From Thermodesulfovibrionales bacterium (GTDB lineage Bacteria; Nitrospirota; Thermodesulfovibrionia; Thermodesulfovibrionales; Dissulfurispiraceae): a stretch of DNA of 26,612 nt. The stretch spans positions 1-26,612 of the forward strand of contig JBAZFD010000001.1 in NCBI GenBank assembly GCA_041653575.1, given 5' to 3'. The position numbers and the translations under genes were made by a program. The notes under the pieces are model-generated. The model was not told the DNA's origin. It made no database searches and worked only from the letters and a program-made list of their open reading frames with translations. This document shows positions 1-1,040 of the stretch, piece by piece; positions within the stretch are counted from its first letter, which is position 1, and every line of letters starts with the position of its first letter.

Positions 1-1005
1 CACCCCCTGTATCGGGAAGGCTGAAGGCTGAAGGCTGAAGTCGGCGAGACCGGGCAGATTAAAACGGATGACCCCGTCTTTAAACCATGCGCCCTTCACC
101 TCTTTCTCCCTGCTGAAGAAATAGATCTCAGGCATTCCCTGGCCCCTATTTTTTTCCTCCTGGACCTTTGACCCTTGCCCCTTGACCCTTTTAACGATCT
201 CCCCGGTCATCGGGTCGTCTGCATTGAGCAGCAGGAAATCCCCTGCCCCCTGGTTCATGAAGACCCTGCACTTCGCATCAGTATACTCCTCCATGGAGCT
301 GTACCTGTCGAGGTGATCAGGGGTGATGTTCAGGATAGTCGCCCCTTTGGGCCTGAAGGATGCTATTGTCTCCAGCTGAAAGCTCGACACCTCGGCGATG
401 ATAAAGAGAGGGTCAAGGGGCAAGGGTCCAGGGTCCAGGGAAGACAAAGAAAGAGGGGCAAGTTCTCCCTTGCCCTCATCTTCTTCTTTCTTGACCCTTG
501 ACCCTTGACCCTTGACCCTTTCATAGATCTCCTCTGTCAGGGCATAGCCGATGTTGCCGCCCAGGAGGGTATTAAAACCTCCGGCCTTCATCATCTCTGA
601 GACCAGCATGGTGGTGGTGGACTTCCCGTTCGTCCCTGTGATGGCCAGGAATTCCGCTCTCTGACTGTCGACTGTTGCCTGTGGACTGTTGACTGTCATA
701 TAGGCCAGCTCCAGCTCGCCGATGATGGGGATACCCCTCTCGGCAGCCCTTTTCAAAGGCGGTATGGAGAGGGGGACTCCGGGACTGATGACAATAAGAT
801 CAGCCTCGGTGAAGAGCTGCTCAGGATGGCCTCCTGCCTCTTTTTTCACCTCCGGTAAAAGCCTGGACAGGAACTCCTCCAGCTCATGGGCAGGCCTCCT
901 GTCCGTTACCGTTATCTCTGCGCCCAGACTGCTGAGGAGGTTTGCAGCCCCTGCCCCGCTCCTGGCTATACCCACCACTGTCACCCTTTTCCCTCTGAAA
1001 TCCAT
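1..1005 (-). CDS. murD: UDP-N-acetylmuramoyl-L-alanine--D-glutamate ligase MurD, 3'-truncated by the window edge
   Basis: Hand translation of the minus strand is open from ATG 1005 (alternative ATG 1011; AGAAAGGA upstream) to position 1. MurD motifs: VVGIARSG, ISPGVP, IIGELELAY, AITGTNGKSTTT (P-loop), GGNIG, EVSSFQLE, LNITPDHLDRY, LNADD, IQGV(HN). Absent from the ORF track because there is no stop in the window. Confidence 0.96.
   Translation of the reverse strand, partial: MDFRGKRVTVVGIARSGAGAANLLSSLGAEITVTDRRPAHELEEFLSRLLPEVKKEAGGHPEQLFTEADLIVISPGVPLSIPPLKRAAERGIPIIGELELAYMTVNSPQATVDSQRAEFLAITGTNGKSTTTMLVSEMMKAGGFNTLLGGNIGYALTEEIYERVKGQGSRVKKEEDEGKGELAPLSLSSLDPGPLPLDPLFIIAEVSSFQLETIASFRPKGATILNITPDHLDRYSSMEEYTDAKCRVFMNQGAGDFLLLNADDPMTGEIVKRVKGQGSKVQEEKNRGQGMPEIYFFSREKEVKGAWFKDGVIRFNLPGLADFSLQPSAFPIQGV
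16..40. repeat. (GAAGGCT)x3.5 tandem heptamer inside murD
   Basis: gaaggct gaaggct gaaggct gaag at 16-40; on the coding strand encodes FSLQPSAF. Confidence 0.9.
160..190. repeat. Degenerate (CTTGACC)x4 tandem heptamer inside murD
   Basis: ctggacc tttgacc cttgccc cttgacc ctt; encodes RVKGQGSKVQ on the coding strand. Confidence 0.9.
409..520. repeat. Inverted pair of heptamer arrays forming a long imperfect hairpin inside murD
   Basis: 411-438 ggtcaag gggcaag ggtccag ggtccag is the degenerate reverse complement of 490-517 (CTTGACC)x4, which is perfect. Inner arms gaggggcaag / cttgccctc close a short loop. Reading frame is preserved. Confidence 0.9.
663..697. repeat. Degenerate (GACTGTY)x5 tandem heptamer inside murD
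   Basis: gactgtc gactgtt gcctgtg gactgtt gactgtc; encodes TVNSPQATVDS between ELELAY and the P-loop strand. Confidence 0.88.
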
Positions 1006-1040
1006 TGTCATCCTTTCTCTGATATCCTTTTATACTGCTT

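Follow-up and report, generated by a model that had tools for sequence, protein, structure and literature searches.

A translated palindrome of opposed heptamer arrays in murD of a Thermodesulfovibrionales bacterium, probably a tolerated copy of a dispersed repeat

The stretch of DNA analysed here (26,612 nt, called the window throughout) is the entire contig C1 of a MAG that amounts to 2.33 Mb in 390 contigs and is 78% complete. On its minus strand, positions 1..1011 hold codons 1-337 of murD, coding for UDP-N-acetylmuramoyl-L-alanine--D-glutamate ligase, recognised by its ORF, by the Pfam domains MurD-like_N and Mur_ligase_M and by its homologs, which put the genome with Nitrospirota of the Thermodesulfovibrionales type. 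The gene is truncated by the contig start and its remainder was found on contig C98, which shares the first 147 nt of the window and encodes the C-terminal part of MurD, giving a complete gene of 507 codons. The assembly break adjoins repeat arrays in murD, a gene that contains five of them on its own. Closest to the contig end is a (GAAGGCT)x3.6 array at 16..40 (minus strand, in frame; found by TRF and compared with the relatives and an AF2 model), encoding the peptide DFSLQPSAF that is conserved among relatives and falls in an ordered region of the model. Another in-frame array, of the GACTGTC type, occupies a separate murD loop at 663..697 (minus strand, from TRF and the murD alignment of relatives). 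At 159..190, again on the minus strand, repeat comparison and TRF revealed a second array of the GGGTCAA family that is a half-element with no opposed arm. The segment around it (136-209) is 80% identical to 466-539, native EEI/GEI codons included.

The complete element lies at 409..520 (minus strand). It is an imperfect heptamer-armed palindrome of 112 nt, in frame and about 37 codons long (residues ~165-202), as delimited by sequence, fold, TRF and homologs. Read in coding sense, its 5' arm (490..520, minus strand) has 4.4 perfect GGGTCAA units with 100% matches in TRF, corresponding to 4.4 perfect CTTGACC units on the plus strand. This arm encodes RVKGQGSRVK, shows no stop in any frame and includes four GGG tracts (GGG-N4 x4), a pattern of the G-quadruplex type judging from the letters only. 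The 3' arm (409..440, minus strand) is formed by CCTGGAC, CCTGGAC, CCTTGCC and CCTTGAC, all variants of the complementary unit, which TRF reads on the plus strand as 4.6 AGGGTCA-type units with 88% matches. It encodes SLDPGPLPLDP, and the unit in which a TGA could have fallen in frame reads GGA. Between both arms there is a core of 49 nt (441..489, minus strand) that runs from a purine-rich tract through a GC hairpin to a pyrimidine-rich one, these parts pairing with one another. The centre of the core (455..476) consists of a GC stem of 7-8 bp closed by a 6-nt loop, behind which each strand has a T-rich tail; it fits a simple intrinsic-terminator pattern in either direction although located in the middle of an ORF. 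As inverted repeats, 406-438 and 490-522 are 88% complementary, and 415-451 and 484-520 are 81% complementary. The left half of the element, i.e. the array plus its purine-rich tail, was found again at 136-209 and near position 1193 of contig C276. The murD frame stays open through the whole palindrome and yields the 37-residue peptide given in an earlier, sequence-only reading of this DNA, which had proposed a coding palindrome of opposed heptamer arrays at 409-520; the sequence, TRF and the inverted-repeat arms all agree with that proposal.

That reading had also suggested that the mRNA could form one long hairpin, and here too the results are in its favour. The coding strand of 395-535 folds as a single long hairpin with an MFE of -75.7 kcal/mol. 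None of 200 dinucleotide shuffles was as stable (mean -48.1, sd 4.4, z -6.3). A more demanding comparison was made with 300 synonymous recodings of the insert peptide, for which the MFE of the natural sequence was -73.4 versus -53.6 for the recodings (sd 7.9, z -2.5), a stability exceeding 99% of them. The folding is thus better than both types of controls, as expected in the earlier reading, although the excess over synonymous recodings is modest, so that most of the pairing in the hairpin follows from the peptide.

In the protein, the palindrome adds a loop. The insert site is a linker in the central domain, bounded by the helix that comes after the GNIG motif and by the strand whose end reads ...AEVSSFQ. 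In the ortholog described below, residues 163-213 (51 residues) replace chain residues 156-159 of 3LK7, the solved structure of Streptococcus agalactiae MurD. An AF2 model of this full-length ortholog (mean pLDDT 83.8, pTM 0.82) gave a pLDDT below 50 for insert residues 173-211, between a helix at 158-166 and a strand at 216-221, and also for residues 302-313 that correspond to the second array site. According to the model, then, the murD insert is predicted to be a disordered, solvent-exposed surface loop of about 37 residues. Its translation as an extra MurD loop, likewise part of the earlier claim, is upheld by the open frame and by comparison of the insert with homologs and with 3LK7. Among 30 MurD genes only two carry the long insert, the one in the window and that of the sister assembly L001, while in the other 28, from relatives of the same family or order, the insert site is occupied by about 8-20 variable residues.

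The nearest MurD (P0002, from assembly GCA_013335375.1) is 68-72% identical and carries a homologous insert with the layout seen in the window plus one additional 3' arm, which folds too. At the nucleotide level, the insert is 79% identical between both genes (77.5% in the rest of the gene), and at the amino acid level 66% (80% in the rest). The lower identity of the peptide at a similar nucleotide identity indicates that the peptide is less constrained than the enzyme and that the DNA is no more conserved. A two-sequence consensus fold of the window and the ortholog keeps 40 pairs, three of them with two-sided changes, and the hairpin includes three wobble changes as well. The 5' arm of the ortholog has C at position 6 in all four units, where the window has A, and several of the partner units have G, indicating that the arms have changed in concert. 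The excess of stability over synonymous recodings is smaller in the ortholog (z -1.5), and its core appears by reading of the sequence to have no terminator-like pattern. The retention of the hairpin and its excess stability would fit either selection on the structure or conversion from arm to arm. On the side against a mere passenger, the hairpin has outlasted a nucleotide divergence of ~21% with three two-sided pair changes.

Variation among strains was followed by aligning Logan contigs from four metagenomes to the window. One contig of 639 nt, taken from an independent rhizosphere sample, covers 366-1004 with 25 substitutions and no indel. Two of the substitutions fall within the palindrome: a synonymous change at 436 (C>A) re-forms a pair; the other, 473 C>T, turns Gly into Asp and disrupts a pair of the core. 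No length polymorphism was detected in this contig, the single one from another sample that spans the palindrome, nor did we find any recent presence/absence polymorphism. A 57-nt 'skip' joint seen in run X3 was discarded as a length variant, since it has one side of just 21 nt and probably derives from another locus. Depth spikes across 471-517 reveal that the metagenomes contain further copies of the array at other places. The presence of the palindrome in the independent rhizosphere contig and in the separate assembly GCA_013335375.1 indicates that it is not an assembly artefact.

The murD element belongs to a class of repeats found all over the genome. Exact arrays with at least three copies numbered 21 for period 7, versus 0-7 for the periods from 5 to 12, and TRF gave 186 rows of period 7. 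There were 102 arrays with at least three copies, of which 83% lay within long ORFs (at least 150 aa, with flanks on both sides), versus 82% of random 32-nt windows, indicating that coding sequence is not avoided. The units belong mainly to two families, GGGTCAA and CAGAAGT; the GGGTCAA-family pattern gave 25 matches in G000 (overlapping ones counted) versus 0 for its reversed control. The earlier reading had also looked to similar inverted arrays elsewhere, and they are present both in this genome and in relatives. We identified 19 opposed array pairs at 18 distinct loci, at least 12 of which lie in frame within ORFs where Pfam recognises a domain. The hosts of the in-frame pairs are a Zn-dependent dehydrogenase (Zn-ADH), NadE, TrpE, LpxK, CarB, RibF, LptD, a SurA-like protein, a tetrapyrrole methylase and CbiD, the last with three near-identical elements in its gene. 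Most of the GGGTCAA-family arrays are one half of such a palindrome. The arms of the pairs are 81-94% complementary, similar in this to the terminal inverted repeats of MITEs, and are separated by 10-53 nt of a core that varies from copy to copy. The purine-rich arm is 5' in all 19 pairs, including the nine close pairs of the GGGTCAA family (9/9). Arm length has a sharp mode at 31-33 nt (~4.5 units) in families both with and without G-tracts, and the elements cluster by gene, with 12 neighbouring pairs within 1.5 kb versus 3.4 expected (sd 1.8). The same array-encoded peptides occur in unrelated enzymes.

The way in which stop codons are handled is informative about what limits these elements. 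The complementary units CCTTGAC and CTTCTGA both contain TGA. Out-of-frame unit positions retain this triplet in 19 of 67 cases for one family and in 52 of 118 for the other (28-44%), but a potential in-frame TGA is replaced by GGA, TGC, TGT or TGG. Hence translation, and not perfect pairing, sets the limits, and part of the periodic mismatches of the hairpin are there because in-frame TGA units have been replaced. Units at out-of-frame positions vary too.

In many genera of the family, in-frame heptamer arrays occupy the same murD loops (four or five of them), with units that differ from those of the window (AAATTTC, GAGTCAA-like, AATAGGC and CTTCNNN types). Three cbiD loops likewise have arrays in relatives, with other units. 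Genomes with AAATTTC at the murD site have it as a dispersed family: of the five checked, four gave 19-62 matches and one gave 2 (controls 0-1). GGGTCAA arrays were found in 11 of the 41 relatives searched. Positions that persist with units proper to each genome suggest either concerted evolution or permissive loops that were colonised again and again. A search of the literature for links between heptamer repeats and Nitrospirota or Thermodesulfovibrio found none among the papers listed.

Taking all this together, we consider it reasonably probable that the murD palindrome is one copy of a heptamer-armed palindrome dispersed in the genome, translated and tolerated where it lies, with its upkeep taking place in the DNA and selection asking for nothing beyond an open frame. 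The class of elements is defined by a purine-rich array on the 5' side (~4.5 units of 7 nt, ~32 nt), a variable core and a complementary array on the 3' side. The arrays would arise and stay uniform at the level of DNA, slippage or copying between arrays being candidate processes, and the second arm might originate by inverted duplication or by conversion from arm to arm. Local spread within genes is a further candidate process. Selection would do no more than keep the frame open, the TGA-bearing unit giving way to one-base variants where it is in frame, and the RNA hairpin would be a by-product and not a device specific to murD.

Some of the regularities fit less easily with free slippage. 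The sharp mode at 31-33 nt and the uniform 5'-purine polarity are unlike its expected outcome and hint at a dedicated mechanism or function. We regard as rather unlikely an active element whose sequence-specific machinery (an HUH/Y1 transposase, an RT together with an Avd-like partner, or a protein that binds the arrays) writes or copies arrays of ~32 nt with fixed polarity. Such machinery would account for a length mode that G-tract and non-G families share, for the polarity of 19/19 pairs and for the clustering of elements, as well as for one half-module at two murD sites and for the near-identical elements repeated three times in cbiD. The CTTCTGA and GGACC-type unit families are also reported in Geobacter (PMC2700814), and among the genes of the present genome there are four matches to Y1_Tnp and a single RT. 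But no arrays of the heptamer families were found beside the Y1 or RT genes in this fragmented assembly, the cores are not conserved and the copy in murD is both old and stable. The lone RT adjoins an integrase-family gene, at a place with no arrays. Neither is there a target-site duplication beyond chance: the longest direct match between flanks averaged 3.44 nt versus 3.36 (sd 0.20) for shuffled pairings, and a single copy, on contig C194, has a flank match of 7 nt. A classical MITE was therefore rejected, since there is no such duplication, the cores are variable and no transposase with matching ends was seen. A REPIN/RAYT link was also set aside, with Y1 genes lacking adjoining arrays in the fragmented assembly and repeats that are mostly intragenic.

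A more general form of this idea is that heptamer-armed palindromes are written or copied by sequence-specific machinery common to several phyla. The arm of ~32 nt, the 5'-purine polarity, the fixed positions with changing units and the units shared by Nitrospirota and Geobacter all point to a writing machinery, and we hold this proposal as tentative and on the whole unlikely. Such a polarity is what one would predict from the addition of purine-rich repeats at a break, on both of its 3' ends, or from arms that form the two ends of one element.

Another alternative, which we find distinctly unlikely, is that the hairpin has a function as RNA or ssDNA, by slowing the ribosome, by marking a site of RNase processing or by attenuating uncoupled transcription, and thus tunes the expression of murD and of the downstream dcw genes. 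The hairpin is indeed very stable, more so than synonymous recodings, it is kept in the ortholog with its compensatory and wobble changes, the strain substitution at 436 restores a pair without altering the protein, and the core is terminator-like on both strands. Nevertheless, similar hairpins are found in about a dozen unrelated housekeeping genes, and with about 18 such hairpins in unrelated genes a role specific to murD is weakened. Pairing gives way to coding at the TGA-bearing units, the excess in the ortholog is just z -1.5, and the other strain substitution, at 473, breaks a pair of the core. The bidirectional terminator-like core is confined to the murD copy and is not conserved. As a family trait, terminator function was rejected, the pattern being found in 2 of 18 pairs, which is the background level. 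The G-quadruplex was discarded as the cause of the four units because the mode of 4.5 units is also seen in CAGAAGN families that have no GGG. In Rfam 15 no family reached its gathering threshold for the palindrome, the best matches being sub-threshold hairpins of eukaryotic miRNA precursors with at most 36 bits versus thresholds of 62-120. All in all, the murD hairpin is probably not a murD-specific RNA switch.

Selection at the protein level, by which a charged and then proline- and leucine-rich loop would have been adopted for a role of MurD such as divisome interaction or solubility, appears very unlikely. The insert is in frame in two lineages and one strain, and the nearby DFSLQPSAF peptide shows that an array-encoded segment can be conserved and ordered in the model. 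The insert itself is predicted to be disordered, shows lower conservation than the remainder of MurD (the 66% versus 80% given above) and is missing from 28 relatives; the repeat unit determines its sequence, and unrelated enzymes contain the same peptides. Finally, the suggestion made from the sequence that the palindrome is what is left of an inverted-array-flanked cassette with its cargo gene lost, perhaps of the four-helix-bundle (23S-rRNA-IVS-type) kind, is extremely improbable: the one such gene of this genome does have flanking repeat arrays, and another is quoted, unchecked, between GGGTCAAGG repeats in another genome, but the arrays around the gene of this genome are octamers of a different family, a search of all GGGTCAA-family arrays for distant inverted pairs gave none enclosing more than 53 nt (9/9 close pairs are 10-53 nt apart with no gene inside), the core is itself palindromic and the element of the sister lineage is equally compact.

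Taken alone, the hairpin in murD is probably a harmless passenger. Its interest lies in being a clean and datable case of repeat DNA that has joined an essential enzyme in a free-living, uncultivated lineage. Similar elements were recorded in the Geobacter genome paper of 2009 (PMC2700814), and palindromic elements have been analysed in detail in Rickettsia. Three features have no account in the literature cited here: the use of the same loops across genera with units proper to each genome, the mode of ~4.5 units and the uniform 5'-purine polarity. If a dedicated mechanism were true, it would bear on how proteins acquire loops and linkers. There is also a practical side, since arrays of this type break metagenome assemblies (the contig of the window ends at one) and inflate the differences in length between proteins.

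Tandem heptamers have a history in other bacteria. The STRR heptamer arrays of cyanobacteria were reportedly described by Mazel in 1990, and the small dispersed repeats of the same group by Elhai et al. in 2008. Heptamer SSR arrays such as GGGAATC (PMC4692102) and TAACTGA (PMC4679880) are known from cyanobacteria, Xanthomonas and Beggiatoaceae, and are reported to be mainly intergenic and under-represented in coding regions, those of Xanthomonas and Nostoc (PMC4692102) included. As in our case, tandem units of 7 nt are over-represented with a preference for about four units, and in Xanthomonas there are inverted pairs able to form stem-loops (PMC4692102). Unlike them, the arrays studied here are not depleted in coding sequence, and their length mode holds for units devoid of G-tracts.

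REPINs, in the 2011 work of Bertels and Rainey, are said to be extragenic, to be built of REPs that are each a small palindrome and to be tied to a REP-flanked RAYT gene. REPINs are defined as doublets of REPs that form hairpins (Bertels and Rainey 2011, PMC3116915). By this definition they share with our elements the two inverted short repeats that with a spacer make a long hairpin and the many dispersed copies (PMC3116915), but the repeats here are mostly intragenic and no RAYT link was found.

The closest description, by structural likeness, appears to be that of the tandem-heptanucleotide elements of Geobacter metallireducens, the Gmet_H4 family and the paired 'class 1-3 global regulator sites' (Aklujkar et al. 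2009, PMC2700814). In the passages of the paper devoted to them, these sites have three to five tandem units of 7-9 nt, are 'mostly found in pairs' whose members lie on opposite strands and are variably spaced, and are interpreted as regulatory RNAs or IHF/HU sites (PMC2700814). The number of units of 7 nt per site (four to five) and the pairing on opposite strands are as in our genome, and the consensus sequences MTYCTGA and GGACCGG-type match, by their description, its CTTCTGA and GGACC-type arms (PMC2700814). The elements analysed here agree with the STRR and Gmet_H4 types in having ~4-5 units, dispersed copies, pairs on opposite strands and intragenic copies. Geobacter belongs to another phylum, and the same passages (PMC2700814) make no mention of in-frame translation, stop avoidance, age or loop location.

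The nearest functional analogue would be the Rickettsia palindromic elements or RPEs (Ogata et al. 2000, 2002), which a later source describes as palindromic repeats of ~100-150 bp that sit in the reading frame of metabolic genes unrelated to each other and yield, on translation, an extra peptide apparently compatible with the fold and function of the protein (PMC10969869). Judging from that description, each RPE family is conserved over its full length, is not made up of tandem heptamers and comes from an obligate intracellular genus; among our elements only the arms are shared, and conservation of sequence and peptide over the whole length is not found, the cores differing among copies. What the heptamer-armed pairs do have in common with RPEs, as these are described there (PMC10969869), is a palindromic repeat translated in frame within unrelated genes.

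The only gene of the 23S-rRNA-IVS type in the genome, coding for a four-helix bundle (PF05635; C102:1462-1776, minus strand), lies within C102:1351-1840 (locus L065) and has GGTGAATT/AATTCACC-family octamer arrays on both sides. One flank is an opposed octamer pair and the other an extra copy of the AATTCACC-type arm; the gene appears to lie within a repeat palindrome. Among the 18 pairs of opposed heptamer arrays, a flank resembling a target duplication was found in one only, the palindrome at C194:98-207, which sits between 7-nt direct repeats (TGCTGAA). The genome also codes for a reverse transcriptase (RVT_1, 497 aa; C99:4844-6337, equivalent to L064:1345-2838) downstream of a phage-integrase-family gene, and no arrays lie near it.

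The cbiD gene contains three CAGAAGN-family hairpin elements (C361:1270-1819, locus L042), which occupy three separate loops and have similar cores. All three cores include CAGATAWT followed a few bases later by AGTCTG, and this similarity suggests copying inside a single gene.

In murD, the (GAAGGCT)x3.6 array at 16-40 of the window encodes DFSLQPSAF. In the aligned MurD column, relatives carry related CTTCNNN-type arrays that code for a conserved PSxFxLxPSxF segment. This segment is modeled with confidence (pLDDT 85-91), and a peptide derived from an array may here have turned into an ordered part of the enzyme.

The rest of murD is found on contig C98, whose positions 3-149 overlap 1-147 of the window. 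In its first bases, C98 departs from the window's contig a short way into the 159-190 array (GGGGCAAGGG versus GGGGCCAGGG, and GAAATC versus GAGATC), which indicates a fork in the assembly graph at this repeat; the difference is probably strain variation. A perfect CCTGACT array of 14 copies (C39:10600-10698) reaches the end of its contig, so longer arrays occur and halt the assembler.

At the centre of the murD palindrome (455-476) there is a GC hairpin with a T-rich tail after it on each strand. Intrinsic terminators that act in both directions have this layout, which here falls midway through an essential ORF.
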